This document shows, piece after piece, positions 855-36,793 of a stretch of DNA of 64,000 nucleotides. The DNA comes from Candidatus Cloacimonadota bacterium (lineage in GTDB: Bacteria; Cloacimonadota; Cloacimonadia; JGIOTU-2). Location of the stretch: positions 32,001-96,000 of the forward strand of contig JBNGBT010000002.1 in NCBI GenBank assembly GCA_049903315.1. The letters are read 5' to 3'. Both the position numbers and the translations under genes were made by a program. Each line of letters begins with the position of its first letter. Within the stretch, counting starts at the first letter, position 1. Below the pieces are notes generated by a model. It was not told the DNA's origin. It saw nothing but the letters and a program-made list of their open reading frames with translations, and did not search any database.

Positions 855-2510
855 ATGAAAAAAGTAATTTTCTTTTTCATTCTCATTATTGGGTTGTTCT
901 CCGTTCAAGCTTTACTTGCTCAAGATAGTGTAGCCAAAGGTGTTATTAAACCCTCAGAAATACCCCCCGGCGCTACAGGATTGATATCAGTAACCTTTAC
1001 TATTCCTGAAGGAATGCATCAGACATTACAGGAAGATTATTTTTATATCGTAACTGACGAAGTTGATAGCATTGAATTTTTGCCCGTTCACTATCCTGAA
1101 GGCACTGAACATGAGGGGCTTATAGATTATTATGATTCTGTGATCCTTACTATGGAATTCATCGTAGCTGATGGTGCAAAGATAGGGGAGCGGGATGTAA
1201 AAGTATATGCAGGATACCAGTTCTGTGATGATGCGGGAATGTGTCATTTTCCTGAGGAAGATGAGCTTGTACTCTCTTTTGTTATCAGTGGTGAGCAACC
1301 TGTCAGTCCTACACAAAAGATTACCTCAACTGATACTAAGACTGAAGTAGCAAAGACATCTGGAACCGATTTTGCAGAGATTAAAAGTAAACTTGATGCG
1401 TTTGTCATGACGGACATTGCTGCCGGTTATCTAAAAAGTAAGGATTTCATCGCATTTGCAGAAAATGCAAAAACAGCAGATGGCTCATCTGCAAATAGAT
1501 TTGCAGGAATGAGTATCTGGCTTATTCTCCTTCTTATAGTTGTCGGAGGTATTGCCCTTAACCTTACTCCCTGCGTACTTCCAATGATGCCAATAACCAT
1601 TGCTGTACTCGGCGCAGGCACTCAGGCGGAATCCAAAGGGAAAGGTTTTTTGATCGGAGGTTTGTACGGAATTGGTATGATGCTGGCATACGGCGCGCTT
1701 GGTTTGATCGTGGTGCTTACAGGGTCGAGGTTTGGTGCAATAAATTCCTCTCCTCTATTTAACATAATAATTGCTGTCATTTTCATTTTACTCGCTCTTG
1801 CAATGTTTGATGTGTTCCCAATTGACTTCACAAAATTTCAGTCGGGCACAATGGCAGGTAAGAAATCAGGTAGGAGCAAATATATTACAGTATTTGTGCT
1901 GGGTGTGATAGCAGCTGTGCTTGCAGGTGCTTGCGTTGCGCCAGTGCTCATTTCAGTCATTTTGTATTCAGTCACATTATATACTTCAGGGAATCCGGCA
2001 GGCTTGCTTCTCCCCTTCCTCCTTGGCTTAGGCATGGCATTGCCATGGCCTTTTGTCGGTGCAGGACTTTCGATCCTTCCAAAACCCGGGAAATGGATGA
2101 AGTGGGTCAAGATCATTTTTGGTGTGATCATTCTCGTGATTGCACTTTATTATGGTTATACCGCTTTGCATATTTTCTCATCACAAGCACAGAACACAGA
2201 TCATGTAGTGGAATATACAGCAGAAGAAAACGAATCTGGCTTGTATTGGACTACCTCGCTAATGGATGGTCTTGAAAGAGCAAAAGAAGAGCGCAAACCG
2301 GTTCTCATTGATTTCTGGGCTACGTGGTGTAAAAACTGCCTTGCAATGGAAGCAACAACTTTCCGAGACGATGAAGTCGAAGAGGTTTTAAAGGATTTTG
2401 TTCTTGTCCGTTATCAAGCTGAGGATTTAAAGAAATCCCCAACAAAAGAGATACTCGATTACTACGATGTGCTCGGACTTCCTTCCTATGTCGTGCTTAT
2501 ACCCAAATAA
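855..2510 (+). CDS. dsbD: DsbD-type thiol:disulfide interchange protein
   Basis: Signal peptide, N-domain CDDAGMC, transmembrane domain with LTPCVLP and GACVAP, C-terminal thioredoxin DFWATWCKNC. Confidence 0.88.
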   Translation: MKKVIFFFILIIGLFSVQALLAQDSVAKGVIKPSEIPPGATGLISVTFTIPEGMHQTLQEDYFYIVTDEVDSIEFLPVHYPEGTEHEGLIDYYDSVILTMEFIVADGAKIGERDVKVYAGYQFCDDAGMCHFPEEDELVLSFVISGEQPVSPTQKITSTDTKTEVAKTSGTDFAEIKSKLDAFVMTDIAAGYLKSKDFIAFAENAKTADGSSANRFAGMSIWLILLLIVVGGIALNLTPCVLPMMPITIAVLGAGTQAESKGKGFLIGGLYGIGMMLAYGALGLIVVLTGSRFGAINSSPLFNIIIAVIFILLALAMFDVFPIDFTKFQSGTMAGKKSGRSKYITVFVLGVIAAVLAGACVAPVLISVILYSVTLYTSGNPAGLLLPFLLGLGMALPWPFVGAGLSILPKPGKWMKWVKIIFGVIILVIALYYGYTALHIFSSQAQNTDHVVEYTAEENESGLYWTTSLMDGLERAKEERKPVLIDFWATWCKNCLAMEATTFRDDEVEEVLKDFVLVRYQAEDLKKSPTKEILDYYDVLGLPSYVVLIPK

Positions 2511-2529: not shown

Positions 2530-3609
2530 ATGAAAAAATTTGCAGTATACTTCCTTGGAATTGTACTCGTGCTAACGATATTTTCCTGTGATAGATTTAA
2601 TCATCATTTTGATCCGTTCTTTACTCCATTCGAGCATTATTTGGAACGATTTGCAACTCATGTGGAAGATGGCATCTTATTTGATGATGTGGCATCTATC
2701 ATGTCCTACTATTCGGATACCTATCTGAACAACGGCGTGGAAAAATCAGGTATGGAGAATCTTTATACTTCCCTCGCTGATGCATCACCGGACAGCGTTG
2801 CAATTGAGATAGATATTCTCACAGAAGCTGAATATAAGGTATCATACCGTATTGTGACTGCAGGAGTTGATACCACTATTATTGACTATGCGCAAGCGCT
2901 GCGTGACAGCTTTCTTTTTATAGGAGATCAGATCGCACCACCGGTTCCACAAAAAGTATTGGTGGAAGTCATCACAGGTACATGGTGCCCGAACTGTCAC
3001 TATGCCGAGGAAGCACTTCAGCAGCTAAAACTGGAATATGGCGATTCCCTTTATTATATGGATTATCACTGGAATGACGTTCTGGACATCGGAGCGATAG
3101 AACTTATACAGTATTATGGGATGAACTATTCAGCTCCTCAATCTATGTTCCAGGGACAGGTAAATGTTACCGGCGGGGGGACAGAAACTTATGATCAATA
3201 CCTTAACACATTCACAACCTTGGCAAGTGAGGATGCTCTCGCACAGATCTTTGATTTCTCTTATACTGTTTCTGATACTCTATCAGGACAAGTTACGATA
3301 GACAAGGATGACACACTTCCACTAGTTGATTTATATCTTAAATATACGCTTGTTGAGAAGGTTTCATCAGTCAATGGATATAATGGAAGACCCTGCGAAC
3401 AGGTCGTTATCGCAAAAGGAATGAAAGATATAAGCAATGAAGATCTCGAAAACCCGGTTTCATTTAAGCTCGAAATGCCCCAAACAGTTCCGGATGATAT
3501 TGTGCTTTACATATGGTTGCAAACTCTTGCAGATCCGTATAATGCGGATACATGTAAAATATATAATGTCATTGAAGAAGATATTGTAATTGTGAAAGGG
3601 AGCAATTAA
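2530..3609 (+). CDS. Lipoprotein with Omp28-like thioredoxin-fold domain
   Basis: Lipobox-like IFSC; KVLVEVITGTWCPNC CxxC motif followed by YMDYHW. Confidence 0.75.
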   Translation: MKKFAVYFLGIVLVLTIFSCDRFNHHFDPFFTPFEHYLERFATHVEDGILFDDVASIMSYYSDTYLNNGVEKSGMENLYTSLADASPDSVAIEIDILTEAEYKVSYRIVTAGVDTTIIDYAQALRDSFLFIGDQIAPPVPQKVLVEVITGTWCPNCHYAEEALQQLKLEYGDSLYYMDYHWNDVLDIGAIELIQYYGMNYSAPQSMFQGQVNVTGGGTETYDQYLNTFTTLASEDALAQIFDFSYTVSDTLSGQVTIDKDDTLPLVDLYLKYTLVEKVSSVNGYNGRPCEQVVIAKGMKDISNEDLENPVSFKLEMPQTVPDDIVLYIWLQTLADPYNADTCKIYNVIEEDIVIVKGSN

Positions 3610-4421
3610 TGAGAAAAATAAAAACTGTTCTGATAGTAAGTTTCATATTCTTCGCTTCCCTAACATTCGCATTGGACACGATGCCGGATTTCACACTTGA
3701 GGATATTAATGGTGACCAGGTAAATTTCGAAGAACTATTAAATAAAAAAGCTGTGATCATTGATTTCTGGGCGAAGTGGTGTACTCCATGCAAGAAAGCC
3801 CTCCCACATCTTAGTGATATTCAGTCAAAATATGATGATTTGGTAAATGTAGTATGTATTACCATTGATAAAGCGCGTGACAAAGGCAAGGTTAAATCTT
3901 TCGTGAAATCCAAGGACTATGAATTCATTACACTTTTTGACCCGAATCAAAGTGTATCAGATATGCTGAATATCATCTCGATCCCAAAGACTTTTATTGT
4001 TAATGAAGCCGGCGAGATCGTGTATACTCATGAAGGTTATACGCAGGGGGATGAAGTTGAACTGGAAGCTGAACTCAGGAAAATTATTTTTAAAAATATA
4101 ACTATGAAAGAGCTTAATAAAATATATCCCCAGGAAGAACTACCGGAGCCTACAACATATGTACTACCTGTGTATCCGGAAAAAGCTCATAATGACGGAA
4201 TCCAGACAGACATTATCCTTGATCTTGAAATTCTGGAGGATGGTACAGTGGGGGATGTGTGTGTTGTCAGTGCCTGTGAAGACCCAACTCATGGATTTGA
4301 GAATGCTGCGATAGAAGCAGCCGGGCAATGGGTATTCGAACCTATTACTATTGACAGCGTGTCCGTTAAAACCCGTGTCCTCTATCCAATTCGATTCAGA
4401 ATAGAAAAATATGAGAGGTGA
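3609..4421 (+). CDS. TlpA-family disulfide reductase fused to a TonB C-terminal-like domain
   Basis: PDFTLED...IIDFWAKWCTPC...SIPKTF; C-terminal PVYPEKA...EDGTV...FENAAIEAA.QWVFEP...PIRF. Confidence 0.85.
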   Translation: MRKIKTVLIVSFIFFASLTFALDTMPDFTLEDINGDQVNFEELLNKKAVIIDFWAKWCTPCKKALPHLSDIQSKYDDLVNVVCITIDKARDKGKVKSFVKSKDYEFITLFDPNQSVSDMLNIISIPKTFIVNEAGEIVYTHEGYTQGDEVELEAELRKIIFKNITMKELNKIYPQEELPEPTTYVLPVYPEKAHNDGIQTDIILDLEILEDGTVGDVCVVSACEDPTHGFENAAIEAAGQWVFEPITIDSVSVKTRVLYPIRFRIEKYER

Positions 4422-4423
4422 TC

Positions 4424-5854
4424 ATGAAAAAAATCATACTATTGCTCGTCATCATATCCTTTGCTTCGTCCCTTTTTGCAGTGAACGATTTTCGCATAAT
4501 CGGTTTAAATGAGGCAACGTACGTTTATAAAAATGCAGAAGATTCCCTGAAGAATTATTTCTCGGATGAATTCAGTTTCAGATTGTCTTACAAAAATTTT
4601 ACATTTGGAATGAAGTTCATTGCGGATCTTCCCAGGTATGATGAATACGCTGCAATGCAGGATCTTACTTCTCAATCGATTTCGTATACATGGGATGAGC
4701 GGTTCCTTGAATATAAAGTGGATGATTTCTCTATACGTGCGGGAAACTTTGAGCAGGTCTTTGGTTCAGGTATTGCTCTTAGAGTCTATCAGGATAGAGA
4801 TTTCGATATTGATACCCGTCTGAATGGATTTTCGACAGAAATATTTCCAAAATTCTTTCAAATGAAAGCCCTGTATGGAGCACTGCCTAATAAGGATAAT
4901 GATACAAAGAATGACCTTGTCGCAGGACTTGATATGCAAAAAGATATATTTGATCCGCTCAAGGTTGGTGCATCTTTTGTGAATGTGCGCAAGTGGCAGG
5001 CAGGTGATAACTATCTGGATAGGAAGATATTTGGCGTTCGAGCCGATCTGGATGTCAGCTTATTCGATTTAAGTGCTGAATATGGCTATCTCGATCAATC
5101 CGAAGGCATTTCGAAGGTAGGACATGCTTTTTACGGAAATCTTAATACATATTTTGATATAATTTCTTTCTCTGTCGCATATAATAATTATTTAAATTTT
5201 GATTCACGTTTAAATGATCTTCCAATTCTCAATCACAGCAACGAACCCTTATACGATTCACCTATCGGAAAAGATCAGCAAGGTGTCATGGGTGAAGTAA
5301 CGTTCATGCCCAATGACTTTAATGAGATTATTGTTAATTATGCAGAAGAATGGAACAATGCATGGACGATCCGGCAGAGTGATCTGTGGGTTGAAGCAAT
5401 TCATTATTTTGACACTTCGACACTGGTCACAAGCTTTTCTCATCTTGAAAGAAAGGATGAAGAGGTGAACCACTGGGAAAAAGAAGTTACTCCTACTCTT
5501 ATGTATGATTTTATGATCGGGGAGACTCCTTTTTCCATAAAAGCGGAGTATCAGTATTTTGATAAACATTACCAGCAGGAAAAATCACATCATTGGGAAC
5601 CGCTTGTGCAAATCGATACGAATATCTTTGATTTTGATTTTTCAATCATTGCGGAATATTCGTATGAAAATATAAAAGATATTGGGAAAAATCCGCCATG
5701 GCTTGGTGCAGAGATAAGCAAAGAGATATTTCAGAGCTCGACAATGCGTCTTTTTATCGGCAAGGAAAAAGGCGGAAAGGTTTGCCGCAACGGCATTTGC
5801 AAATATCGCAACCAGTTTGAAGGATTACGTTTAGAATTAGTTACCACTTTTTAG
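4424..5854 (+). CDS. Outer-membrane beta-barrel-like protein (DUF6029-like) with C-terminal CxxxxC
   Basis: Signal peptide, alternating beta-strand pattern, terminal Phe, GGKVCRNGICKY; alternative GTG start at 4418. Confidence 0.65.
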   Translation: MKKIILLLVIISFASSLFAVNDFRIIGLNEATYVYKNAEDSLKNYFSDEFSFRLSYKNFTFGMKFIADLPRYDEYAAMQDLTSQSISYTWDERFLEYKVDDFSIRAGNFEQVFGSGIALRVYQDRDFDIDTRLNGFSTEIFPKFFQMKALYGALPNKDNDTKNDLVAGLDMQKDIFDPLKVGASFVNVRKWQAGDNYLDRKIFGVRADLDVSLFDLSAEYGYLDQSEGISKVGHAFYGNLNTYFDIISFSVAYNNYLNFDSRLNDLPILNHSNEPLYDSPIGKDQQGVMGEVTFMPNDFNEIIVNYAEEWNNAWTIRQSDLWVEAIHYFDTSTLVTSFSHLERKDEEVNHWEKEVTPTLMYDFMIGETPFSIKAEYQYFDKHYQQEKSHHWEPLVQIDTNIFDFDFSIIAEYSYENIKDIGKNPPWLGAEISKEIFQSSTMRLFIGKEKGGKVCRNGICKYRNQFEGLRLELVTTF

Positions 5855-5869
5855 TGGGAAGGAGCATAT

Positions 5870-6601
5870 ATGAAAAAAAATGTACTAATATTTATGAGTT
5901 TAATTTTATTAGGTGTCATCGGCTTGCATGCTGATCTGACAGTAAACATTCCTTTTGATCCTGATGTTATGGGACCTGCGTATAATGATACAAATTATAC
6001 TTATGTGTCTGAATATTTCGATGTGATAAATGAAGGAGTTACAGATGACTTTACTGTTATTGTAGATTACTTGGAGATTCCATCAGGATGGTCACTGGGT
6101 TGGTGTCACGAATATCAAGGCAGCGGTGCATGTCATGTGGTGCCTTATCCATGGACTTTTGAGTTTGGAAGCGGAGATACATTAAAATTAGATTTTTCTA
6201 TCTTTGTCACTTCAGCCGGTGCGATGCCTTTCTTTTATTCCTTTACCGCACCAAGCTTAGCATTTCCAACCGTTGTTGATTTTTCTTATACAACAGGCGT
6301 TGCAGTTGACGATCCGCAATATAACGAAAAGGTACTTCTGAAGAATTCACCGAATCCCTTTAATGAATCAACTGAAATTTCTTTTAATATAAAAAATTCT
6401 GCACACAGAGATGCAAAGATCGCAATATATAACCTTCAGGGAAAACTCATCAAAAGCTATTCTGTCAGCCCTGAAATGAATTCAATCACTTGGAACGGCA
6501 CTGACGAAAAAGGTGCAGCGCTTCCCAGTGGAGTGTACTTATACACTGTCACTATGGATGATGAGATCATGAAAACAGAAAAATTATTATTACTCAAATA
6601 A
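5870..6601 (+). CDS. Secreted protein with FlgD-Ig/T9SS-like C-terminal sorting domain
   Basis: Signal peptide; NSPNPF...IYNLQG...WNGTDEKG..LPSGVYLY tail. Confidence 0.8.
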   Translation: MKKNVLIFMSLILLGVIGLHADLTVNIPFDPDVMGPAYNDTNYTYVSEYFDVINEGVTDDFTVIVDYLEIPSGWSLGWCHEYQGSGACHVVPYPWTFEFGSGDTLKLDFSIFVTSAGAMPFFYSFTAPSLAFPTVVDFSYTTGVAVDDPQYNEKVLLKNSPNPFNESTEISFNIKNSAHRDAKIAIYNLQGKLIKSYSVSPEMNSITWNGTDEKGAALPSGVYLYTVTMDDEIMKTEKLLLLK

Positions 6602-6610
6602 GGAGAACTA

Positions 6611-8695
6611 ATGCGTTTTAAACTCGGAATACTGATTTCAGTGTTGTTGATCACGACCGGATTGTCGGAATTGTATGGAAACCAGAATATTCTCACACCT
6701 CAACTTCAGCAAAAGCTGCAGGAGAGCACTCGAGATGAATTAATACCCGTCAATATAATTATGAAAGAACAGTATGATCCTCAATATCTGTTACAGCAGA
6801 GTATGTTTCTTCCTATTTCAGAAAGAAGAAATTACGTCATCCAAGAGCTGCAATCCTTTTCTGATATGCATCAGCAAGAGCTTCTTTATGATCTGCAGAA
6901 CCTGTCTTACAACAATGTCGTGCAGGATATTCAATCCTTGTGGGTTTCGAATGTTATTGCCTGCAAAGCTACATCAGAAGTTTTATATGATCTAATGGAG
7001 CGGGATGACATTGAATTTATTGATCATGATGAGATACGAAATATGCTCATGTTTGAAAAAGGAAATACATATAATCCAACCTCTCGTGAGATCACGTGGA
7101 ATGTGACCAAGGTCAATGCTGATGATGTGTGGAATCTTGGATATACAGGAAGCGGTGTCGTGGTCGCAGTTATCGATACAGGCGTGAATTATAATCATGT
7201 TGACCTTGCTGATCATTTGTGGACTGATCCCGCATATCCAAATCATGGCTGGGATTTCCGCTATAATGATAATAATCCTATGGACGATCATGGGCACGGC
7301 ACACACTGCTCCGGTACAGTTGCCGGAGATGGAACTGCCGGTTCTCAGACAGGAATGGCACCAGATGCTCAGATCATGTGCCTTAAAGTTCTTGATAGTG
7401 ATGGCGGTGGCTCGGAATCCAACGTATGGAATGCAATTCAATTCGCTATTACAAATGGTGCAGATGTTGTTAGTATGTCCCTTGGTTGGCTGCATGCATG
7501 GTCACCAAATAGGGTAACATGGCGCAATACTATGAACACTCTCCTGGCAGCAGGCATCCCAGCTTCAGTTGCTGCAGGTAATGAAGGAGATCAACAGTAT
7601 TCATATCCGATTCCTGATAATGTTCGAACTCCCGGCGATTGCCCTCCTCCCTGGCTTCATCCTGATCAGACACTCATAGGTGGAATAAGCTCGGTCATTT
7701 GTATTGGTGCGACCAATTCCGGAGATGGGATTGCAGGTTTTTCAGGTCGAGGACCTTGTACATGGGAATATATATCCGGTTTCAATGACTATCCTTATTC
7801 TCCTGAAATCGGCTTAATACGTCCCGATATTGTTGCTCCCGGAGTCAACATCAAATCACTTGCTCATTATAGCAATTACGGGTATGAAAACGGTTGGAAT
7901 GGAACCTCAATGGCAACACCTTGCGCTGCTGGTGTGATGGCTTTGATGCTTTCAAAAAATCCAAACATACTTCCAGCTCAAATCGATCAAATTTTAGAAG
8001 AAACTGCATATGTGCTCTCAACATCAAAGAGCAATACATTTGGTTCAGGAAGAGTCGATGCACTTGCAGCAATAAATCAGGTTCCTTCCCCGAGTCCGAT
8101 CATGAACTTCTACCCGGATAGTCTTGACTTTGGAGATGTTCAGATTGGAGACGAATTAACTCAACAATTTTATATTGAAAATGTTGGTGGAGATACACTC
8201 CGCGGCACGATTAATGCGCCGGACGGATTCACCGTAACATTACATGGTTCAGATGAACCCGGCAGAAATACTCTTGAATATGCTGTTTCTTGCGGTTCGT
8301 GCACTGCATACGATCTCATTTTCTGCCCGACGAGTGTACAAACTTATGATGATTATGTCAGAATCAACCAGATCCCATTTTATATGTTCTATCTTGATGT
8401 ATGTGGTGAAGGATGTCCTGAAGTAGGTGTTGATCAAAATCCTCATACGAAGCCCTTTATAGAGCATTTTCCAAATCCTGTCACATCAACGCTGAACATG
8501 CACTACTCACTAAATAATCAGCAGGATGGCCTGCCTATCACAATCTATAATATTAGAGGTGAATTTATCACTACGATCCAAGGGCATGACGGCATCGCGA
8601 GTATGGATGTGAGCTCTTTGAATTGTGGTGTATATTTTTATAAAATAAATCATCAGGGAATATCATATTCCAATAAATTCATAATACTAAAATAA
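6611..8695 (+). CDS. S8 (subtilisin-like) serine peptidase with C-terminal sorting domain
   Basis: Catalytic triad motifs VIDTG, HGTHCSG, GTSMATP; oxyanion AAGN; FPNP...YNIRG...GVYFY tail. Confidence 0.93.
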   Translation: MRFKLGILISVLLITTGLSELYGNQNILTPQLQQKLQESTRDELIPVNIIMKEQYDPQYLLQQSMFLPISERRNYVIQELQSFSDMHQQELLYDLQNLSYNNVVQDIQSLWVSNVIACKATSEVLYDLMERDDIEFIDHDEIRNMLMFEKGNTYNPTSREITWNVTKVNADDVWNLGYTGSGVVVAVIDTGVNYNHVDLADHLWTDPAYPNHGWDFRYNDNNPMDDHGHGTHCSGTVAGDGTAGSQTGMAPDAQIMCLKVLDSDGGGSESNVWNAIQFAITNGADVVSMSLGWLHAWSPNRVTWRNTMNTLLAAGIPASVAAGNEGDQQYSYPIPDNVRTPGDCPPPWLHPDQTLIGGISSVICIGATNSGDGIAGFSGRGPCTWEYISGFNDYPYSPEIGLIRPDIVAPGVNIKSLAHYSNYGYENGWNGTSMATPCAAGVMALMLSKNPNILPAQIDQILEETAYVLSTSKSNTFGSGRVDALAAINQVPSPSPIMNFYPDSLDFGDVQIGDELTQQFYIENVGGDTLRGTINAPDGFTVTLHGSDEPGRNTLEYAVSCGSCTAYDLIFCPTSVQTYDDYVRINQIPFYMFYLDVCGEGCPEVGVDQNPHTKPFIEHFPNPVTSTLNMHYSLNNQQDGLPITIYNIRGEFITTIQGHDGIASMDVSSLNCGVYFYKINHQGISYSNKFIILK

Positions 8696-8700
8696 TTATC

Positions 8701-11304
8701 ATGAAAATCAAAAAAAGTAAGATAGTCATTCCTATATTCTTATGCGCTGCAATTATTGCAGTTGTACTTATTTCCATCCCAAAACCAGCTAGTAAAGGCA
8801 AACCTGCAGAACGCTGGGTAGAAAAACCACACGGTCAAAAAGTTAAAAAAGAGCCCGATGTGCTGCCCAATGAATGGATGGCTTACCAGCGCGTTTATCC
8901 CTATGATAAGATCAAGCTCGAGAACTATCTTAAAAGCATGGAAGATGCCCAGAAACTTCACAAGGAGTCCGCTCATTATAAATATTCCTGGGAGTTAGTA
9001 GGACCTACCAATATTGGTGGGCGCATCACTGATCTTGCGGTAAATCCTAATGATCTGAATACTTACTACGTGGGAGCTGCATCCGGCGGAGTGTATAAAA
9101 CCATAAATGGCGGTGCGAGCTGGGAAAATATTTTTACCGATGTACCTGTTATTTCTGTGGGTGCTATTGCACTTGATCCAAACAATGTAACTACTCTTTA
9201 TGTCGGGACAGGTGAAGCGAATGCATCGAGTTACAGTTTTCTTGGGAACGGCATATATAAGTCCACAAATGGCGGTCTGTCATGGGACAATATTGGTTTA
9301 GAACAATCCGGCTATATTGGCAGGATCGTGGTAGATTATATGAATTCTCAGAGAGTGTTCGTGGCAGCGTGCGGAAATCTCTTCTCACCAAATTCCGAAA
9401 GAGGAGTATATCGCAGTGATGATGGTGGGGAGACCTGGCAGCGAAAACTCTTCATTAATGATTCCACTGCAGCAGTCGATATTGTTCAACATCCAACCAA
9501 TCCGAATATTCTCTATGCCGCAATGTGGGAGCGTATGCGCGGTTTGACGTACAGACGATCCTTTGGTCCGAGTTCCGGTATCTGGAAATCAGAAAATGGC
9601 GGAGATACCTGGACTGAGCTTACAAATGGTTTGCCAACGGGCAGTGATGTAGGACGAATCGGACTCGCAATTGCAAAATCTAATCCTGATAGGCTTTATG
9701 CATTTTATGATAGAACAAACCAGGTTGATGTCTACAAAACAAGCAATGGCGGAGCAAGCTGGACTGCAACCAATGATGGAGCACTGCAGGGAATAAACAG
9801 CAATTTCGGCTGGTATTTCGGCCAGATCCGGGTCGATCCAAATGACCAGGATCGAGTATATGTTATGGGAGTGTACCTGTACCGTACAACAAATGGAGGT
9901 TCAAGCTGGAGTGAAATCGCATATAGTGTGCATGTTGACCATCATGCAATGTATATTGATGAAGATACAGGATTTATTATCGAAGGAAATGACGGCGGTC
10001 TTTATACCAGCTCAAATTCGGGCTCTTCTTGGTCAAAAATAAATAACCTACCCATGACGCAATTCTATGCAATCGAGATCGATCAAACCTATCCTTACAG
10101 AATCTACGGCGGTACTCAGGATAATAATACGATCCGGACTATGACAGGTGCACTTAATGATTGGGAAGCAATTTTGGGCGGAGATGGATTCTACTGCTTG
10201 GTAGATTACACAAATCCTAATAGAATCTTTGCAGAATACCAATGGGGCAACCTATACCGGTCAACCAACGGAGGTTCATATTTCAGCTATATTGCAAATG
10301 CAATGAGTGGCGACCGAACAAACTGGTCTTCTCCCTATGTGATGCATCCAACAAATCCTGATATTCTCTACTTTGGCACGTATAGAGTATGGAAAACAAC
10401 GAATGGAGGATCAAACTGGTCAGCAGTAAGCGGAGATCTTACTCAGGGTGATGATATAAGTGGTTATCATACAATCTCAACAATGGCTATCTCCACACTT
10501 GACCCTGGTCTTATTCTTACAGGCAGTGATGACGGACGAGTTCATATTTCCGATAATAGTGGGACTTCATGGACAAATATTTCTGTAGGTCTGCCTGATC
10601 GCTGGATTACGAGAGTGGCATTTGATCCTCATAATGCAACTACCATCTATGCAACGATTTCCGGTTTTCGCTGGGATGAAGAAGCCCCCCATGTTTTTAA
10701 ATCTACTAATCTTGGATTGGACTGGGTAAATATTAGCGGAAATCTTCCTGAAATGCCCGTGAACTGCATTGCCCTTGATCCGAATATCCAGAATAAAATA
10801 TTTGTTGGAACGGACTCGGGTGTATTTTTCTCTGAAGATGGAGGCTTTAGCTGGCACAGTCTTTCCCAGGGAATCCCCAATGTTCCTGTTACTGATATGA
10901 AAATTTATAATCCTGATCGATTTATGGTCATCGGCACATACGGCTGTTCTGCATATAAGATCGATCTTGACGACATTATTGTGAGTACTGATCCTGAACC
11001 GGACGAGCACGTGCTTGTACAACTCTATCAGAACTATCCCAATCCTCTTTCATTATCTTCACATGCATCAACGCAGATCGATTTCTCTCTGAGTACTCCT
11101 GCTGATATAGAAATTACAATCTATAATATAAAAGGTCAGAAAGTAAAAAACATAATGAACAATCAATTGGCAGCTGGGGATCATAATGCACTATGGAATG
11201 GTACTGATGAATTCGGTAAATCCGTTTCCACAGGAGTGTATCTTTACAAGCTGTCTGTTAATGGAAATGTAAAGCAAATCAAACGATGTACAATAATACA
11301 ATAA
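8701..11304 (+). CDS. BNR/Asp-box beta-propeller (VPS10/glycosyl-hydrolase-like) protein with sorting tail
   Basis: Many (S/T)xNGGxSW repeats; NYPNP...YNIKG...WNGTD..G..VSTGVYLY tail. Confidence 0.85.
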   Translation: MKIKKSKIVIPIFLCAAIIAVVLISIPKPASKGKPAERWVEKPHGQKVKKEPDVLPNEWMAYQRVYPYDKIKLENYLKSMEDAQKLHKESAHYKYSWELVGPTNIGGRITDLAVNPNDLNTYYVGAASGGVYKTINGGASWENIFTDVPVISVGAIALDPNNVTTLYVGTGEANASSYSFLGNGIYKSTNGGLSWDNIGLEQSGYIGRIVVDYMNSQRVFVAACGNLFSPNSERGVYRSDDGGETWQRKLFINDSTAAVDIVQHPTNPNILYAAMWERMRGLTYRRSFGPSSGIWKSENGGDTWTELTNGLPTGSDVGRIGLAIAKSNPDRLYAFYDRTNQVDVYKTSNGGASWTATNDGALQGINSNFGWYFGQIRVDPNDQDRVYVMGVYLYRTTNGGSSWSEIAYSVHVDHHAMYIDEDTGFIIEGNDGGLYTSSNSGSSWSKINNLPMTQFYAIEIDQTYPYRIYGGTQDNNTIRTMTGALNDWEAILGGDGFYCLVDYTNPNRIFAEYQWGNLYRSTNGGSYFSYIANAMSGDRTNWSSPYVMHPTNPDILYFGTYRVWKTTNGGSNWSAVSGDLTQGDDISGYHTISTMAISTLDPGLILTGSDDGRVHISDNSGTSWTNISVGLPDRWITRVAFDPHNATTIYATISGFRWDEEAPHVFKSTNLGLDWVNISGNLPEMPVNCIALDPNIQNKIFVGTDSGVFFSEDGGFSWHSLSQGIPNVPVTDMKIYNPDRFMVIGTYGCSAYKIDLDDIIVSTDPEPDEHVLVQLYQNYPNPLSLSSHASTQIDFSLSTPADIEITIYNIKGQKVKNIMNNQLAAGDHNALWNGTDEFGKSVSTGVYLYKLSVNGNVKQIKRCTIIQ

Positions 11305-11321
11305 AACAAAAAGGATATCTC

Positions 11322-13499
11322 ATGAAAAAATTACTTATACTAATCGCGGCTTTAATTATGCTTCCCGCAATTCTTTCTGCAACACAAATGAACGTGGTCG
11401 GGGAAGTATTTACATCCACGTCTTGAGGATACTGTCCTTCAGCCCGGGCCGGGTTGAGAGATCTTCAAGCTAATTTTGATAACTTTATACCGCTTTTCTG
11501 GCAAAGCACCAGCGGCTACGTGGGGATGCCAAGTCCCAATTACAGCACCCGTGGGGGTATGTACGGTGTCAGCGGTATTCCACATGCTCGATTTGGAGGA
11601 TACATCTCTGAAGTTGGTGGAATTGCTGGCGGTAATATGTACAATTATTATCTTCCTCATTACAATACACTTAATGCCCTGGATAGTCCATGTGCTATTG
11701 ACATTACGATGGATGTTACCTCTAAATCTACCATTGATGTTCAAGCTGATGTTGAATTGACTGGAAATATTACTACTACTAACAACAAGATCATTCTTCT
11801 GCTTACATACAAATACACTGATGATTATACTTGTGCGGTCGTTGCATATCATGATGAGAACTTTAATCTTACCACAGTAGGTCAGACCGGAAGCTTTTCC
11901 TATTCATTCGCGTATGACCCAGACTGGGTATTACCCGATTTGAAGGCAGTTGCTATTGTTCAGCCCTTTTCAAGCAATTACAAAATACATCAGGCAGCCA
12001 CTTGTGGTGTGAGCGGCATTTTCTCAATCTTCAGCAGCAATATTCAATCCGGACCACCGCAATTGGGTGTACAATTCTATAATGAATCATATCCTGATAC
12101 AGGCATTGTATCATATGAATGGGACTTTGACGGAGATGGAACATGGGACAGTACAGAAGAAAATCCATATCATCTTTATGACACGATTGGTAGTTATAAT
12201 GTATCACTCCGCATCTCTGATGGAGTCGAAACAGCAACTACAACAGCAGATGATTATATCACTGTAACGAACAGCTCAGATATTTCCGGAGAATTATCCG
12301 GTATATGGACAGAAACATATAGTCCATATATTATCACCGACGATGTGCATCTTGCGGATGAAAATCACCTGGAGATCGGACCGAATGTGGTAATCCATAC
12401 GAACAACGGAAGCAAAATCACGATTGAAGGATACTTCCGCGCAGTAGGTGATGAACGAGGTAACATCATTTTTATGACTGATGATACCTGGAGCGGTTTA
12501 TACTTCTTCAATTCACCTTATGAAAATGCACTGAGTCACGCAAATATAACCGGTTCTAATAACTGCGCAATCGATATTTATAACTCCCGAGTAGTAATAG
12601 GTTATAATACTATTTTTGGAAACTCCACAAGCTCTCAGAAAGGACCTGCGATCAATGCAACGAATGCTGACGAAGTGCTTATTGAATGGAATCTGATATC
12701 CAATAATACAAGCTCGAGTTTGTGTGGTGCGATAAGTTTGGATAATTCCTCTCCGCTTATTGTTCGTAACATCATTGTGAATAATGAAGCGGTCTATTCC
12801 GGTGCATTTAGCATGAAGAATGCATCATGTCCGGAACTTCTCAATAATACTATAGCGAACAACCTTGCGAGTTATGTATTTTATTTGTTTTCAAGCTCTA
12901 ATCCTATAATCGAGAATTCTATTATCAGGAACACGAGTAATGTGTTCATTAACTTCTCCAGCACACCTTTAGTCACATATTCTGATGTTTCAGGTGGATT
13001 CACAGGGACAGGCAATATCGATGAAAATCCCCTGTTTGTTAATCCAACTGCCGGTGACGGACCTACTTATGACGGGCTTGCAGCTGATTGGGGCTTACAG
13101 CAATCCTCCCCATGTATCGATGCAGGAAATCCTACTTCACCACCCGATCCTGACGGCACTCGTGCTGATATGGGTGCTCTGTATTACCATCAATATGTGT
13201 CTGTAGATGACCCGGAGGTAATACCGGTTTCCGTACACAACTTCCCTAATCCTTTTGCCAATAAAACGACTATTTCTTTTAATTCAACTGCGAATCTACA
13301 GGGCTTGGATCATATTACCATCTACAATATAAAAGGTGAGATGGTTACAACCTTAGCTTTAGAAGCATCTGATTCAGGATTCAGCACTGTATGGGATGGT
13401 AGAGATGATGCAGGAAAGAGTGTTTCAAACGGAATATATTTCTACAAATTCAAAGCAGAAGATATTGAAAGAACACAGAAATTGATCTTAATGAGATAG
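11322..13499 (+). CDS. Predicted exported selenoprotein (Sec at codon 35, UGYC): Omp28-like thioredoxin domain, PKD, beta-helix and sorting tail, 725 aa
   Basis: AAGGA RBS then ATG at 11322; MKKLLILIAALIMLPAILSA signal peptide; GEVFTSTS-TGA(11424-11426)-GYCPSAR; in frame with the 11454 ORF; hairpin at 11439-11457. Confidence 0.88.
11439..11457 (+). promoter_or_regulatory. Candidate bacterial SECIS hairpin
   Basis: TCAGCCCG-GGC-CGGGTTGA: 8-bp stem (one G-U) starting 12 nt after the UGA, G-first loop. Confidence 0.8.
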
Positions 13500-13524
13500 C
13501 TGATACTCAATTTAGAAGATACAT

Positions 13525-13555
13525 AGAGCAGGATGTCGTAGTCCTGCTCTTTTTT
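13525..13555 (+). terminator. Intrinsic terminator
   Basis: AGAGCAGGA-N8-TCCTGCTCT followed by a T run. Confidence 0.85.
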
Positions 13556-15846: not shown

Positions 15847-15871
15847 CTGATACTCAATTTAGAAAATATAT

Positions 15872-15902
15872 AGAGCAGGATGTCACAGTCCTGCTCTTTT
15901 TT
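15872..15902 (+). terminator. Intrinsic terminator (copy of 13525-13555)
   Basis: AGAGCAGGA-N8-TCCTGCTCT followed by a T run. Confidence 0.85.
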
Positions 15903-16071: not shown

Positions 16072-17994
16072 ATGAAAAAATTAGCTGTTCTCATATTTCT
16101 TATGATCCTCTCATCAACAGTTTTTGCAGCGTATCAGGTCGGCGATGTAGTTTCAAATTTCAGCTGGACTGATAACACAAGCACAACGCATAATATTTAT
16201 GACCTCATCGACGCGGAAAAAGCGATCGTATTTTTCTGGGGAGGTACTGGTTGAGGTGGCTGTGTTTCGGCGGCGCCGCAATTAGAAACTATCTGGCAAA
16301 ATTACCAAGGAACCGGTCATTGTTACATTCTTTCCGAAACCGACTGGACTTCTTATGGAGCAACATATTTTAATTCTTATGATATCGATCCTTATTACTC
16401 TCAATATGGAAACGGGTTTATTCCATTTTTTGCTGTCATTGGTGGTGAATACAAATTGTATTACGGAGACAATAGTGTGGGTAGTGTACCAGCTGCGCTG
16501 GATGCTGCCATTGCATCCTTGGGTTTATATGCAAATTTTGATGCAAATATAACTCAGGGACCTCCAGAACTCACTGTGCAGTTTACCAGCACATCGTCAG
16601 GTGCTCCGGATGCATGGGACTGGGATTTCAACAATGACGGTACCATTGATAGTCACGAAGAAAATCCTGTGTGGACCTACACCGGAGTTGGTTCTTATGA
16701 TGTTTCTCTTACAGTTTATGAAGGAGCTGATAGCGATGAACTCATTCAAGAGGACTTTATTACTGTTCTCGATCCATCGAATGTATCCGGTGAATGTGCT
16801 GGAAATTGGTCACCCACTTATGGAACGTACACGATTACTGGGAATGTTACCGTTCCTGTCGGTACGGTTCTGTCGATCGAGCCAAGCACGAATATCGTTG
16901 TAAATAATGGCAGCAAGATTGAAGTGAAAGGCAGAATTGAAGCACAGGGTTCAGAACGTGGATTGATACACTTCTCAACCGGCACTACATGGAAAGGTGT
17001 AAAGATAATCGATAGTCAAGAAGACAATGTGATCGATTTATGCTATTTCACAGGTTGTACAGAAAGTGCAGTTGATATTGATAATTCTACAGTAGATGTT
17101 CTCAACAGCACGTTTTATGAAAATACCAATACGAATCAAAAAGGTCCTGCTATAAATGTATTAGATGCCAGTGATGTCCTTATAATGGGTAATTCAATTG
17201 CAAATAACTATAGTTCTGTCCTTTCAGGTGGTATTGTGCTCGATAATGCCTCGGTTGAGATTTCCCATAATATCATTGTGAATAACGAAGCTACTTTTGC
17301 CGGTGCAATTGGAATGAAAAATGGATCTGATGCATCACTTATCAATAATACGATTGCAAACAATGTCGGGAGCTATGCCTGTATTTATCTTATATCCTCT
17401 TATCCGAATGTACTCAATACGATCATCATTCATGATGGTTTGATATTCACGACATTCAGCAGTAATCCAATAGTAAACTATTCCTGTATCTCAGGCGGAT
17501 ATTCCGGAACAGGAAATATCAGCGATGATCCGGAATTTGTGACTCCCTCTGCAGGGGACGGCATTGCCTATGATGGTTTAGCTGCAAACTGGAATCTGCA
17601 AGAAACTTCTCCGTGTATTGATGCGGGAGATCCTTCCTCACCTCCTGACCCTGACGGCACGATTGCAGATATGGGTGCTTTGTACTATCATCAGGTAGTC
17701 TCGGTTGACGATCCACACAGCAACATGATCTATGTCAGACAGAATGCACCGAATCCTTTCAAAGGTTCTACTTCAATATCCTATTCATTGCCAAAGAATT
17801 CCGAAAATGCTGTCATCACGATCTATAATGTCAAAGGTGATGTTGTGAAGGAATTTACTCTTGAAAACACAGAAGGTGATATCATATGGAATGGTATGGA
17901 TCAGAATAATAATGCTGTTGCAAGCGGAGTTTATTTTTATAAACTGCAAGGAGATTCCATTTCTCAGACCAGGTCAATGGTCTTCATGAAGTAG
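16072..17994 (+). CDS. Predicted exported selenoprotein (Sec at codon 61, UGGC): AhpC/TSA-redoxin-like domain, PKD, beta-helix and sorting tail, 640 aa
   Basis: AGGAG RBS; signal peptide; VGDVVSNFSWTD...KAIVFFWGGTG-TGA(16252-16254)-GGCVSAAPQLETIWQ; no other stop before it joins the 16456 ORF in frame. Confidence 0.9.
16264..16289 (+). promoter_or_regulatory. Candidate bacterial SECIS hairpin
   Basis: Core CGGC-GGC-GCCG (16268-16278), extendable by GTTT/AAAC; loop starts 17 nt after the UGA. Confidence 0.65.
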
Positions 17995-18022: not shown

Positions 18023-18117
18023 TGAGAGGAAGGAACTGGTGTTCCAGCTGGTCTTCAAAATCAGTAGTGAGCGGATAACACCGTTTATGGCAGGTTCGAT
18101 TCCTGCCCTCTCGGCCA
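18023..18117 (+). tRNA. selC: tRNA-Sec (anticodon UCA)
   Basis: D arm GGAAC-TGGT-GTTCC; 6-bp anticodon stem with CTTCAAA loop (TCA at 18055-18057); long variable arm; GCAGG-TTCGATT-CCTGC; G-CCA end; directly upstream of selA. Confidence 0.96.
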
Positions 18118-18145: not shown

Positions 18146-19525
18146 ATGGATAAAAACGAACTCAGAAAAATTCCCGGAGTGGATACCTTGAAAAAGACCT
18201 CAAAGATTAAAGAACTCATTTCTGAATTTGGAGAAGAACTCACAGTTTTCTCAATCCGCCAGGTATTGGATAAGGTAAGAGAATCTGTTCTACAAGGGAA
18301 GAGAATTCCATCCGAAGATAAGATGCTTGCTATGATCGGGCAGAGAATAAATAATATTGGTTCCCAATCATTAAAACCAATGATCAATGCGACGGGTATC
18401 GTGCTGCATACAAATCTTGGGCGAGCCCCACTGGGTGAAGTACTCACAGAGGAAGTATCCAGAGTAATTCACGGATACTCCAATCTTGAGTTCGATTGTG
18501 AAAAAGGAAAGCGGGGTCACAGGGGAAACCATATCACTGATCTTATTACTTTTATTACAGGCGCAGAAGATGCAGTTGTCGTAAATAATAATGCAGCAGG
18601 TGTGTACCTGTCTCTCAGAACATTTTCAAAAGGTAAAGAAGCAATCATATCTCGCGGTGAACTGATAGAGATAGGTGGCTCATTCCGCATACCTGATATC
18701 ATGAAACAAAGCGGTGCGAAAATGATCGAAGTGGGTACAACAAATCGTACACGCCTATCAGATTATGAAGCAGCAATTACTGACAAAACTGCGGTACTGT
18801 TCAAGGCACACAAATCAAATTATTATATAGAAGGATTTTCCGAGGAAGTAGAGATAGAAGCTCTTGCGCAGCTCGCGCATGATAAGGAACTCATGTGTGT
18901 TTTTGATTTGGGATCGGGATTACTGAGAAAACCAACGGGGCTCTTATTAGAAACTGAACCGGATGTTCATAGTGCAATTGCGTCCGGTGCCGATCTCGTG
19001 ATGTTCAGTGGTGATAAACTTCTGGGTGGTCCTCAAGCAGGCATTATTGTCGGCAAAAAGAAGTATATTCAGAAATTGAAGAAATCACCACTTATGCGTG
19101 TACTTCGGGTAGGAAAAATGACGCTTGCAGCACTCTCTGCAGTGATCCGATGCTATCTCAAAGATGAAACACTCCTTGAAAATGTGCCAGTTTTCCACTT
19201 GCTGGATCAGAAAAAAGACGAACTGCAAGAGAAAGCACTACAGTTTTCAAAACTCCTTTTAAAAGAAAAAATTCCTAATATAATTATTGAAAATACGGCT
19301 CATTGCGGCGGAGGGACTCTTCCACAAGTTGAAATTCCCAGTTTTGCAGTGCGGCTTGATCTCTTAAAAACAAGGATTACTCCAGAACAGCTTTACCATC
19401 AATTGCTTCAATTAGAGAAACCTATTCTCGGTATTCTTCGCGAGGGTACGATACTCTTTGATGTGTTCACTTTAACTGAAGACCAGTTTGAATACATAGC
19501 AAAGCAAATAGTTGCTTTTAATTGA
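18146..19525 (+). CDS. selA: L-seryl-tRNA(Sec) selenium transferase
   Basis: INATGIVLHTNLGRA, VVNNNAA, SRGELIEIGGSFRIPD, EVGTTNRT, FSGDKLLGGPQAG. Confidence 0.98.
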   Translation: MDKNELRKIPGVDTLKKTSKIKELISEFGEELTVFSIRQVLDKVRESVLQGKRIPSEDKMLAMIGQRINNIGSQSLKPMINATGIVLHTNLGRAPLGEVLTEEVSRVIHGYSNLEFDCEKGKRGHRGNHITDLITFITGAEDAVVVNNNAAGVYLSLRTFSKGKEAIISRGELIEIGGSFRIPDIMKQSGAKMIEVGTTNRTRLSDYEAAITDKTAVLFKAHKSNYYIEGFSEEVEIEALAQLAHDKELMCVFDLGSGLLRKPTGLLLETEPDVHSAIASGADLVMFSGDKLLGGPQAGIIVGKKKYIQKLKKSPLMRVLRVGKMTLAALSAVIRCYLKDETLLENVPVFHLLDQKKDELQEKALQFSKLLLKEKIPNIIIENTAHCGGGTLPQVEIPSFAVRLDLLKTRITPEQLYHQLLQLEKPILGILREGTILFDVFTLTEDQFEYIAKQIVAFN

Positions 19526-19788: not shown

Positions 19789-21723
19789 ATGAAGCATTTG
19801 ATAATGGGTACAGCAGGTCATGTTGACCACGGCAAAACTGCGCTCATCAAGGCACTGACAAATTTTGATTGCGACACGCACAAGGATGAGAAAAAACGAG
19901 GGATCACTATTCATCTTGGTTTCACACATCTCGATCTACCGAATGGGAACAGCATCGGTATAATTGATGTGCCCGGGCATAAAGATTTCATCAACACGAT
20001 GATATCTGGAGCCAGCACAATTGATTTTGTGCTTTTTACTGTCGCTGCAGACAGCAGTATCATGCCGCAAACGAGCGAGCATCTGCATATTATGGAGCTT
20101 CTGGGTATCAAAAACGGCATTATTGCACTAACAAAATGCGATACAGTTGATGAAGAAATATTGGAACTCGTTGAGCTTGAAATTGACGAGTTCGTTGCAG
20201 GTACATTTCTTGAGCACGCTCCGATCATTAGAACATCTACAAAAGATAATATGGGAATGAGTGAATTAATGAGTGAGATCAGTAAAATCACAGAGAAAAT
20301 TGAGCAGCGATCATCCGGATTATTTTTCAGAATGTACATCGACAGGATTTTCAGCGTTCAAGGTTTTGGTACGGTTATAAACGGGTCGGTTTTGCAAGGA
20401 AGCGCAACAAAGAATACAGTTTTGTATTTACTCCCCGGGAGTAAAGAATTGAGGATTCGCAAGATGGAACATCACGGGAAAGAGGTGAATGAAGTGGTAT
20501 CCGGTCAGCGAGCTTCTTTGAATGTGGTGGGACTGGATATACAGAATTTCCAGCGTGGAATGATGGTATCAGAAAGAATCATAAAACCTACAAAAATGAT
20601 CGATGCGGAACTCACTTTATTTGATCATGACAGAACTTTCGGAATATGGAATCATGCCCTTTTTCTCATGGGTACTTTTGAAGATCAAGTAAGGATACAT
20701 TTACTCGATAAAGATACTTTACAAGGTGGTGAAAAAGGATTGGTGCAGATACATCTTGAAAAAGAATGCTTTCCAATTTTTGGAGATTCATTCATTATCA
20801 GGAGCACGTCCGGAGATATTACACTTGGGGGAGGTAAGGTGCTGGATGCATATCCCCTTCATCATAAAAAGCGAACTCCGCAAATCATGGAACATATACA
20901 GACAATTGCGGATGGGGGTTTGCCGGCATTCATCGCAGCTGAGGTGAGAAAGCGACCTCATGCAGTTCCTCTACCATTTCTTGCAGAAATTTCTAACATT
21001 CCTGAACAAGAATTGAAAGAAATAGTATTAGCTTCCATTCCCGATGATATCGAGATAAGAGAAGTCAATCAAAAAATATTATTAGTAGCTCTCTCAAGAA
21101 TTGGACTGATTAAAGGAAAAATTACCAAAATACTCACGAAGCATCACACGGAGAATCCGCTTATACAAAGGGGAAAAACCTTCGAAGAATTATCCAGTCT
21201 ACTGAATCTGGGCACAGAATATGACGTTTCATTCTTGAGTATGCTGTTGGAAGAAATGAGTAATAATAAAGTTCTGCGTAAGATTGAAGGAACGTATGCT
21301 CTTAAAGAAAAGGATAATTCGCCTTCCGATCAAGAAATAAAAAAGATAAAGAAAATCGGACAATTCATATTGAGTTTTGGTATGAAAGTTCCTTTAATGA
21401 ACGAGATAAAGGAATTTGGCCAGACACAGGGAATGTCTCAGAAAGAACTGCATGATATTATCAATTTTCTTATTGAAAATAAAGAAATCGTTACGATCGA
21501 AGGTTCGTTTATTCACGCAGCGATCATTGAAAAAGCGAAGAATGTGTTAATCGCACATTTCGAAAAGAATGAGACGCTCATGCTTGCTGATTTTCGTGAT
21601 AACTTGCAGGCAAATAGGAAGATATGCCTGTTGTTACTCTCTTATTTCGATGATAAGGGATGGACTGTTCGCAAAGGTGATTATCGGATATTGTCCGAAA
21701 AAGGTAAGGAGTTATTACACTGA
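19789..21723 (+). CDS. selB: Selenocysteine-specific elongation factor
   Basis: [43 protein letters not shown]-terminal winged helix FRD...RK...L.YFD..G...R.GD.R. Confidence 0.98.
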   Translation: MKHLIMGTAGHVDHGKTALIKALTNFDCDTHKDEKKRGITIHLGFTHLDLPNGNSIGIIDVPGHKDFINTMISGASTIDFVLFTVAADSSIMPQTSEHLHIMELLGIKNGIIALTKCDTVDEEILELVELEIDEFVAGTFLEHAPIIRTSTKDNMGMSELMSEISKITEKIEQRSSGLFFRMYIDRIFSVQGFGTVINGSVLQGSATKNTVLYLLPGSKELRIRKMEHHGKEVNEVVSGQRASLNVVGLDIQNFQRGMMVSERIIKPTKMIDAELTLFDHDRTFGIWNHALFLMGTFEDQVRIHLLDKDTLQGGEKGLVQIHLEKECFPIFGDSFIIRSTSGDITLGGGKVLDAYPLHHKKRTPQIMEHIQTIADGGLPAFIAAEVRKRPHAVPLPFLAEISNIPEQELKEIVLASIPDDIEIREVNQKILLVALSRIGLIKGKITKILTKHHTENPLIQRGKTFEELSSLLNLGTEYDVSFLSMLLEEMSNNKVLRKIEGTYALKEKDNSPSDQEIKKIKKIGQFILSFGMKVPLMNEIKEFGQTQGMSQKELHDIINFLIENKEIVTIEGSFIHAAIIEKAKNVLIAHFEKNETLMLADFRDNLQANRKICLLLLSYFDDKGWTVRKGDYRILSEKGKELLH

Positions 21724-25570: not shown

Positions 25571-25648
25571 TAAAAAATTTTTCGAGTGCACATCTACATC
25601 CTTGACATTTAATTTTGACATTGTTGCTTTTTTTCATTTGGAGGTTCA

Positions 25649-35755: not shown

Positions 35756-36793
35756 ATGAATAGTAAAAAATATATAAAGAGAGTTGTTGCATTGGCAGCA
35801 ACGCTAATCGCAGTATCTGCTGTATCACTTTCTGCGGATATTTTACTCTGGGATAATGATAACTACTCCACAATTGAAGATCCGGAAGGTGCTGGATATG
35901 TCGGATGTGAATATGCACTTGAAAAAGCATTCAATAACATGACTTTATCCTACACGACCTTAAGTTATCTGCCCACAAATCTGAGTGATTATGACATGTT
36001 GTTCATTACACTCGGTCACTGGTGCTTTGGTTGAGGAAGCACTCCTCCGGGCCAGGTTGGCTCAATCGAACAGCAGATGATCATCGATTTTATTGAATCC
36101 GGTAAATCGGTATATATAGAAGGCACAGATGTTGCTTCGGGTTTGCAGGGAACGTCACTTTTTGACTACTTTGGAAACTCATTTGACGGAGAGGGTGGCA
36201 ATATGAATGTGCAAGATCTTGCGGGTGTTCCGGGCTCGTTTGCTGATCCTATTATGGTTGATTATCAGTACTTTTCAGAATCAGATTATGGTGTGGATGA
36301 GCTTGGCGCAGCATCTGCAGGAATATGTGTCCAATCCCAGGATATGATTGGCAGAGTTACTTATTGGGACGGTCCTGATGGCACTTATAGAGCAATGATG
36401 AGCTCGATCCTGTTCGGTTCAATAATCGATGGAACAGGTAACAACAATAAAGCTGCACTCCTGAGCCGTTATTATTCCTTCATGAAAATTCCCCCTGTAA
36501 GTGTCGATCCGCCAAATTCACCATCAAATGACATTATTCTGCAAAATTATCCCAATCCATTCTCAGCTTCTACCTTGATTTCTTACTCAATCCCTCCCCA
36601 TCAAAATAATATTTCTCTCGAAATATTTGATATCAAAGGGAGAAAAATTAAAGAATTTTCTTCATTGCAACAGGACGGCACTATTGTCTGGGATGGTTCA
36701 GATCATTTCGGAAATAAAGTGTCTAATGGTATATATTTGTACAAATTCCGGGGAGTGGATAGTGACGTGCATAAAATGATGTATATAAAGTAA
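35756..36793 (+). CDS. Predicted exported selenoprotein (Sec at codon 93, CFGU) with sorting tail, 345 aa
   Basis: GGAGG RBS, signal peptide, ITLGHWCFG-TGA(36032-36034)-GSTPPGQ in frame with the 36077 ORF; NYPNPF...WDG...VSNGIYLYK tail; follows selD. Confidence 0.82.
36038..36062 (+). promoter_or_regulatory. Candidate SECIS hairpin (weak)
   Basis: AGC...CCT-CCGGGCC-AGG...GCT; shares CCGGGCC with the 11439 hairpin. Confidence 0.5.

Follow-up and report, generated by a model that had tools for sequence, protein, structure and literature searches.

Does the in-frame TGA at 11424 on this Candidatus Cloacimonadota contig end a gene, or is it read as selenocysteine (Sec), and what would the resulting protein do? 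The window, by which we mean the whole 64,000-nucleotide stretch of DNA analyzed here, very likely holds a gene in which UGA 11424 is read as Sec in an exported surface thioredoxin of a known family, as judged from sequence comparison. Our overall reading is a Sec-bearing surface disulfide reductase or isomerase recharged by proteins of its own operon, to which we assign a probability of roughly 0.72.

Gene frame and start codon

An ATG at 11322 opens a frame of 725 codons that closes at TAG 13499 and contains a single internal TGA, with residue 35 in the context VVGEVFTSTS-U-GYCP. The main features of the reading frame are as follows.

11322..13499, + strand: predicted selenoprotein gene, 725 aa including U35 (frame read and homologues)
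11311..11315, + strand: Shine-Dalgarno-like AAGGA, 6 nt before the ATG (sequence)
11322..11381, + strand: signal peptide with MKK, hydrophobic run and A-x-A-like end (judged by eye; homologue N-termini similar)
11424..11426, + strand: in-frame TGA, predicted Sec35 at the first position of UxxC, with Cys38 at 11433-11435 (sequence, homologues)
11438..11458, + strand: SECIS-like hairpin with an 8-bp stem and a G at 11447 (+21) in its loop (folding, shuffles, covariation)
13525..13550, + strand: intrinsic-terminator-like hairpin closing the 855-13499 gene run (sequence)

The plain ORF track begins at TTG 11454, within the hairpin and with no purine-rich site ahead of it, whereas ATG 11322 lies 17 nt past the TAA of the preceding ORF (8701-11304) and 6 nt behind the AAGGA. 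An earlier note had placed the true start at this ATG and held that the ORF track had missed it, and we agree. Homologues carry the signal peptide upstream of the site and the motif across it, and database entries that begin after the TGA show the same annotation truncation. The corrected annotation restores a signal peptide and an active site that are lost from the current gene call. No alternative letter or indel at the TGA was present in four of four public-run contigs, which are possibly the source of the same DNA and not independent of it. A promoter scan was uninformative (68 sites against 62 expected).

Selenocysteine machinery

The complete set of selA, selB, selC(UCA) and selD is present, all within the window.

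18023..18117, + strand: tRNA-Sec, anticodon UCA, discriminator G73 (tRNA search, sequence)
18146..19525, + strand: selA (TIGR00474, 550 bits, cut-off 268)
19789..21723, + strand: selB with winged helix (TIGR00475, 319 bits, cut-off 242)
33261..35456, + strand: NifS-like desulfurase fused to SelD, Cys form (TIGR00476, 397 bits, cut-off 125)

Elsewhere in the genome, a Sec-type SelD (AGUAGK; L239:141-1187, G000:C55) occurs besides the Cys-type fusion of the window, along with a TxxU Sec peroxiredoxin (L240, G000:C11). These two rule out the idea that all selenoproteins of this genome are secreted. No formate dehydrogenase alpha subunit scored over the cut-off of TIGR01591. A genome motif scan for read-through frames returned mostly chance frames, and a coding-score census missed genes 11322 and 16072 because of their signal peptides; it is therefore not a full selenoproteome.

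The hairpin behind the TGA

The hairpin forms 8 pairs enclosing a 5-nt loop, or 9 pairs enclosing GGC. Its apical loop lies at +20 to +24, inside the range of 16-37 nt behind the UGA described for bacterial SECIS elements (PMC10778597). Against dinucleotide shuffles, a procedure too blunt for this hairpin, the result was borderline (z -1.66, 10/200), and against synonymous-codon shuffles of the same peptide it reached p = 0.005. The earlier note had called this the cleanest of three hairpins in the window, with an 8-bp stem, and by energy it is indeed the strongest, at -12.3 kcal/mol compared with -4.9 and -8.0 kcal/mol behind the TGAs at 16252 and 36032.

In a stem alignment of 32 rows (12 TGA and 20 TGC/TGT), 87.9% of cells are paired and 31 cells have double changes, figures inflated by kinship and by the hand-picking of rows. 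Pairing as high was seen in none of 500 shuffles of this alignment, and slid registers were 34-42% paired. The strict fixed register is met by 14 of 31 TGA homologues from UCA genomes, the remainder having a shorter stem or a hairpin 1-5 nt out of register.

Conservation of the TGA

We surveyed 202 genomes of the phylum, each at least 80% complete, with a 10-row profile at E<=1e-30, yielding 149 matches in 84 genomes. Four matches that did not reach the motif were dropped. A single TGA is present in 95 of the 145 motif-covering matches, across 8 families, and in the subset of these loci where the site was read it takes the place of the first or second motif Cys. U35 itself falls on the first Cys column of the homologues, as expected from the earlier assignment of Sec to the first position of UxxC, and the motif Cys columns are near-invariant in the alignment. 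The 97 genomes of families f2, f3, f4, f6 and f9 gave no match at E<=1e-30, and neither a UCA nor a GCA tRNA-Sec pattern was found in them. Cloacimonadota account for 34 of the 38 named homologue loci. TGA homologues outside the phylum include one KSB1 and two Neomarinimicrobiota records (L123, L126, L154), all with selB over the cut-off.

Two readings would do without Sec here. In one, the gene is broken, or is expressed as a 681-aa protein from TTG 11454 that lacks the motif. Gene callers give exactly this form, 17 of 34 database matches span just 72-89% of residues 21-233, and 10 of the 11 database sequences that were read begin past the motif. Yet the recurrence of the same TGA across 8 families refutes such a truncation by conservation, the sequence upstream encodes the signal peptide and the first strand of the fold, and TTG 11454 has no ribosome-binding site, so we give this reading hardly any weight. 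In the other, UGA 11424 is read as Cys or Trp, either under an altered code or by a tRNA-Cys of the selC* type. A selC* tRNA-Cys with a UCA anticodon, marked by U73, does exist in anaerobes (PMC7609411). Here, however, the window's tRNA has G73, selA and selD are intact, TGA is a normal stop that terminates 14 of the 47 listed + strand genes, and the gene uses TGG 9 times, making this reading about as improbable as a broken gene. Sec insertion at UGA 11424, for which the machinery, hairpin and homologues speak together, is very likely.

Architecture and family

The protein appears to consist of a redox head, a stalk and a sorting tail.

11382..11681, + strand: thioredoxin-fold domain, residues about 21-120 (AlphaFold2 pLDDT 94.1, fold matches)
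11682..12020, + strand: Ig domain of Omp28 type, residues about 121-233 (2R2C matches model residues 102-213 with Z 11.8)
12051..12266, + strand: PKD domain (Pfam PF00801, PF18911, over cut-off)
12528..12962, + strand: right-handed beta-helix that forms part of the stalk (PF13229 over cut-off, E 3e-7)
13242..13496, + strand: T9SS type A / FlgD-Ig C-terminal sorting domain (PF18962, PF13860, TIGR04183, over cut-off)

The head was modeled with AlphaFold2 as residues 21-233 from a 33-row alignment, and matches HBP35 with Z 22.1, rmsd 2.6 and 206 of 213 residues aligned (Foldseek E 1e-10). A full-length single-sequence model was discarded (pLDDT 33.7), leaving the stalk without a reliable model. 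The earlier note had proposed a thioredoxin fold over residues 21-150 of an Omp28-like protein. The fold is present in the model and in the fold matches, its extent is shorter than proposed, stopping near residue 120 where the Ig domain begins, and the likeness to Omp28 holds.

By its features, a signal peptide judged by eye and a sorting domain (TIGR04183, 37.4 bits, cut-off 23), the protein is a predicted T9SS type A cargo. A profile search for the outer-membrane parts SprA, PorU and PorV of the machinery found SprA and PorU over the cut-off in this genome and PorV under it (152 of 250 bits). T9SS in Cloacimonadota is allowed by a review (PMC11285876).

NCBIfam NF045500 matches residues 18-229 (E 2e-24) at 82-86.5 bits against a cut-off of 200; the window's protein is the best-scoring of 33 homologues and still lies below that cut-off. 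NF045500, the Omp28-related selenoprotein, is GOS_C with UxxC (PMC13188914, Table 1), which Zhang and Gladyshev were the first to predict, in 2008, assigning it a Trx-like fold (PMC2398784). The two share UxxC within a Trx-like fold, plus a bacterial SECIS behind the UGA. They differ in that our protein covers only profile positions 34-267 of 377, and in that a PKD and beta-helix stalk of roughly 400 residues separates its head from its tail. Because NF045500 is curated as a selenoprotein family, the kind of protein is already known; the stalked form is no member by score. With this gene, a selenoprotein family known from prediction alone would gain a surface form of T9SS type that bears a stalk. 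In their accessible parts, the selenoprotein reviews PMC13188914 and PMC9312934 mention neither Omp nor Cloacimonadota, and a search outside the subscription literature found no paper pairing Omp28 with a selenoprotein.

Other family models score lower, with Pfam Omp28 (PF11551) at 17.6 of 34.9 bits and the lipoprotein model NF033782 at 18.3 of 150 bits, both under their cut-offs; there is no Cys after the signal peptide, hence no lipoprotein signal. The nearest known structure, HBP35 of Porphyromonas gingivalis (PDB 5Y1A, PMC2907840), has the same thioredoxin and Omp28 Ig head, the CxxC in the same N-terminal position, and a sorting domain. Unlike our protein it has Cys in place of Sec, is 344 aa long and lacks a stalk, and identity is 14-15%. 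HBP35 reduces insulin via its CxxC (PMC2907840).

The earlier note had also aligned the motif by eye with the CPNC of the protein at 2530-3609 and taken the two as a Sec/Cys pair within the window. Homology by profile is clear, with hhalign giving 97.9% (E 5e-13) and placing U35 on the first Cys of CPNC, while BLASTP is weak (24% identity, E 0.004) and puts the Cys out of register. With 22% identity in the aligned part, the 2530-3609 protein is a distant lipoprotein paralogue and not a Cys version of this gene.

Operon and proposed function

The gene is the last in a run of eight that starts at 855 and has no gap longer than 19 nt.

855..2510, + strand: DsbD-like disulfide reductase (PF02683, PF11412, PF13899; NF001419 under cut-off)
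2530..3609, + strand: Omp28-like lipoprotein, CPNC (family profiles, hhalign)
3609..4421, + strand: TlpA/ResA-like thioredoxin, CTPC, with TonB_C tail (family profiles)
4418..5854, + strand: DUF6029 outer-membrane barrel-like protein, invariant CxxxxC (Cys456, Cys461) (profile, alignment)
5870..11304, + strand: three T9SS-tail proteins: unknown, S8 subtilase, Vps10/BNR (ORFs, profiles)

Genes for DUF6029, TlpA and the lipoprotein adjoin the homologue in 9 of 20 long loci, and dsbD does so in 8 or 9; the link is absent in 11 of the 20, some of which were picked for sel genes or bear paralogues. DsbD and TlpA form a reducing chain, and both genes head this operon, as in the DsbD-TlpA/ResA envelope reducing pathway. 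To our knowledge, pathways of that type stop in the periplasm, whereas here a CxxxxC barrel and surface cargo come after. The DUF6029 protein has two cysteines only, in a CxxxxC directly ahead of the last strand, kept in 25 of 25 matches (some genomes counted twice) and in 19 of 19 alignment rows. In the usual barrel topology the loop holding this motif faces outward. Complex prediction of DUF6029 with the head, run on the orthologue pair from genome G035, scored 0.07 against a mark of 0.32 and is uninformative either way.

We propose the following sequence of events. SelB bound to the hairpin (+15 to +35) would bring Sec-tRNA(UCA) to UGA 11424, giving the 725-aa protein. The signal peptide would send this protein into the periplasm. 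From there its C-terminal domain would guide it, via a T9SS-like machine, onto the cell surface, a route that its features make likely. There an HBP35-like thioredoxin-Ig head would be held on a PKD and beta-helix stalk, with the Sec35 selenolate as nucleophile and Cys38 as resolving residue. The head would probably reduce or reshuffle disulfide bonds in extracellular proteins, for example cargo secreted alongside it or proteins used as food. The conserved dsbD, Omp28 lipoprotein, TlpA and DUF6029 operon points to a disulfide reductase at the cell surface whose recharging would reach across the envelope; recharging by this co-encoded chain, including the CxxxxC of the barrel, is a tentative proposal, and would give a route for keeping a surface thioredoxin reduced. 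That the CxxxxC itself relays electrons across the outer membrane is rather doubtful, and its cysteines could be a structural disulfide.

Other roles for the selenoprotein must be weighed against this one. It might act as a periplasmic or surface oxidase or isomerase, or as a peroxide scavenger, rather than as a DsbD-fed reductase. In work cited by PMC2907840, hbp35 on a plasmid complemented a dsbA mutant of E. coli, which would fit the former, and the common use of Sec in peroxide defence, with a Sec peroxiredoxin in the same genome, would fit the latter. We consider both together improbable, since the conserved neighbours DsbD and TlpA form a reducing chain and the UxxC motif is that of thioredoxins and differs from the TxxU of peroxiredoxins. 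PKD and beta-helix domains, both found in this protein, are typical of adhesins and would suit a main role in stalk adhesion with redox chemistry as an accessory. The same could be said of haem or metal capture, as HBP35 is a haemin binder that helps growth when haem is lacking (PMC2907840). The low identity to HBP35 and the near-invariance of the motif cysteines speak against such roles, as does gene 16072, whose product joins this stalk to another redox head; the stalk therefore looks like a display scaffold, and we see little chance that haem capture or adhesion is the main function. A Sec-bearing surface disulfide reductase or isomerase is thus the reading we retain.

Probable selenocysteine at cysteine codons in relatives

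Many close orthologues have TGC or TGT at the Sec site and keep the hairpin. Their genomes have a tRNA-Sec with anticodon GCA, which ARAGORN calls tRNA-Cys. By exact patterns, the GCA form occurs in 23 of the 202 genomes (16 genera, 7 families; G024, G030, G035, G041, G044, G052, G055, G058 and 15 more), the UCA form in 75, and both in four (G054, G142, G143, G148), each of which has two selB genes. All nine GCA tRNAs that were read carry G73 and are therefore not selC* tRNA-Cys.

The codon follows the anticodon genome by genome. In GCA-only genomes TGA is absent from 32 of 32 matches (18 genomes), and in UCA-only genomes it is present in 86 of 90, the exceptions being in G008, G136, G157 and G158. 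Genomes with both anticodons have nine matches without TGA and one with it; those in which neither pattern was found have eight with and five without. In a register equal to that of the window's own hairpin, fixed post hoc with the data already seen, 27 of 35 sites from genomes with GCA alone have a stem of at least 5 pairs and G at +21, where synonymous shuffles predict 0.1, and an in-register hairpin occurs at 3 of 9 sites in both-anticodon genomes. The same register was empty in all controls: 0/9 Omp28 lipoproteins, 0/9 TlpA, 0/9 DsbD, and 0/10 distant homologues from genomes without selB over the cut-off.

In a CxxCGGDYS subfamily the hairpin is displaced to suit the second Cys. CxxU, predicted beforehand for relatives of this subfamily in UCA genomes, was seen in 4 of 20 loci and in 2 named loci; the same 20 loci include 10 more with a C-U variant and 6 with the UxxC form. 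Sec-type SelD shows TGA at 7 loci. At 9 loci from GCA or both-type genomes it shows TGC or TGT, followed by a hairpin of 7-8 bp; 5 GCA genomes have an EYGGC form that lacks the hairpin, and among NifS-fused SelD the picture is mixed. For peroxiredoxin, 6 cases carry TGA and 2 carry TGC with a weaker hairpin.

One TGC-coded homologue stands apart: L017 (G008:C63) has a 7-bp in-register hairpin in a genome with 6% contamination where only a UCA tRNA-Sec was found. This hairpin may be a fossil SECIS, or the contig may be foreign; a hairpin may therefore occur without a matching anticodon.

The close TGC/TGT orthologues are probably selenoproteins with Sec at Cys codons. Plain Cys forms are disfavoured as an explanation, with the G008 case as an exception and with kin that are not independent of one another. 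In a quick SelB tree of 54 rows, 17 of 17 GCA rows fall within one 24-row branch (SH-aLRT 98), whose remaining rows are 5 UCA and 2 unknown; the SelB of the window is placed outside it, on weaker branches. The simplest reading is then that UGA is the ancestral state here, GCA having been gained once and followed by returns, or gained twice.

The principle of Sec at Cys codons is already published. Sec insertion at UGU/UGC via tRNA-Sec(GCA) was described by Mukai et al. 2016 (as given in PMC8124441, PMC11415595, PMC10778597 and PMC5330540), reviews name Aeromonas salmonicida as a user of it, and a 'Cloacimonetes type' 7+5 tRNA-Sec was described in the same work (per PMC5330540). Like that system, relatives of our gene combine TGC/TGT, an in-register hairpin, tRNA-Sec(GCA, G73), selA and selB; unlike it, the window's gene itself uses ordinary UGA. 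It is highly probable that in an old, large branch spanning seven families the entire Sec code shifted from UGA to UGC/UGU, with reversions to UGA afterwards. If so, this family, the CxxU family, SelD and peroxiredoxin are all annotated there as Cys proteins, and the match between codon and anticodon would point to hidden selenoproteins at Cys codons missed by UGA-based surveys. The Omp28-related family would serve as a clean marker of Sec codon choice, and the GCA genomes would offer natural SelB, tRNA and SECIS sets that recode a sense codon. That this code switch holds jointly with a surface selenoproteome recharged via the DUF6029 CxxxxC is unlikely.

Other selenoprotein candidates and neighbouring features

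Two further candidates lie in the window.

16072..17994, + strand: predicted second selenoprotein, redoxin-like UGGC head, TGA 16252 (profiles, homologues)
35756..36793, + strand: third selenoprotein candidate, CFGU, TGA 36032, T9SS tail (motif scan, homologues)

The stalk of the 16072 product is 47% identical over 495 aa to that of the 11322 protein. TGA is present in 13 of 13 matches to this gene, which the query used detected only in family f1 (12 of 35 genomes). The gene lies directly before selC. Of 24 matches in the CxxU family of 35756, 19 carry TGA, and the three from G052 and G054 carry TGC followed by a hairpin. The Sec-bearing domain of this candidate and of L113:664-2670, another CxxU protein with a T9SS tail, matched nothing in Pfam or NCBIfam and could represent a family not yet described.

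On another contig of the genome (L241:99-2243, G000:C69), a T9SS-tail beta-helix protein has an in-frame TGA in CEYG-U and a 7-bp hairpin. Within the window, a direct repeat (13422-13555 and 15769-15902; 122 of 134 bases identical) covers the 3' tail domain and terminator of two neighbouring genes. The frame at 13768-15846, between two of the selenoprotein genes, encodes a 692-aa T9SS-tail protein with no family match beyond the tail. Further downstream, 24065-27154 holds a tandem pair of genes, each encoding a 501-aa fusion of an anti-sigma-kinase-like ATPase with GNAT.
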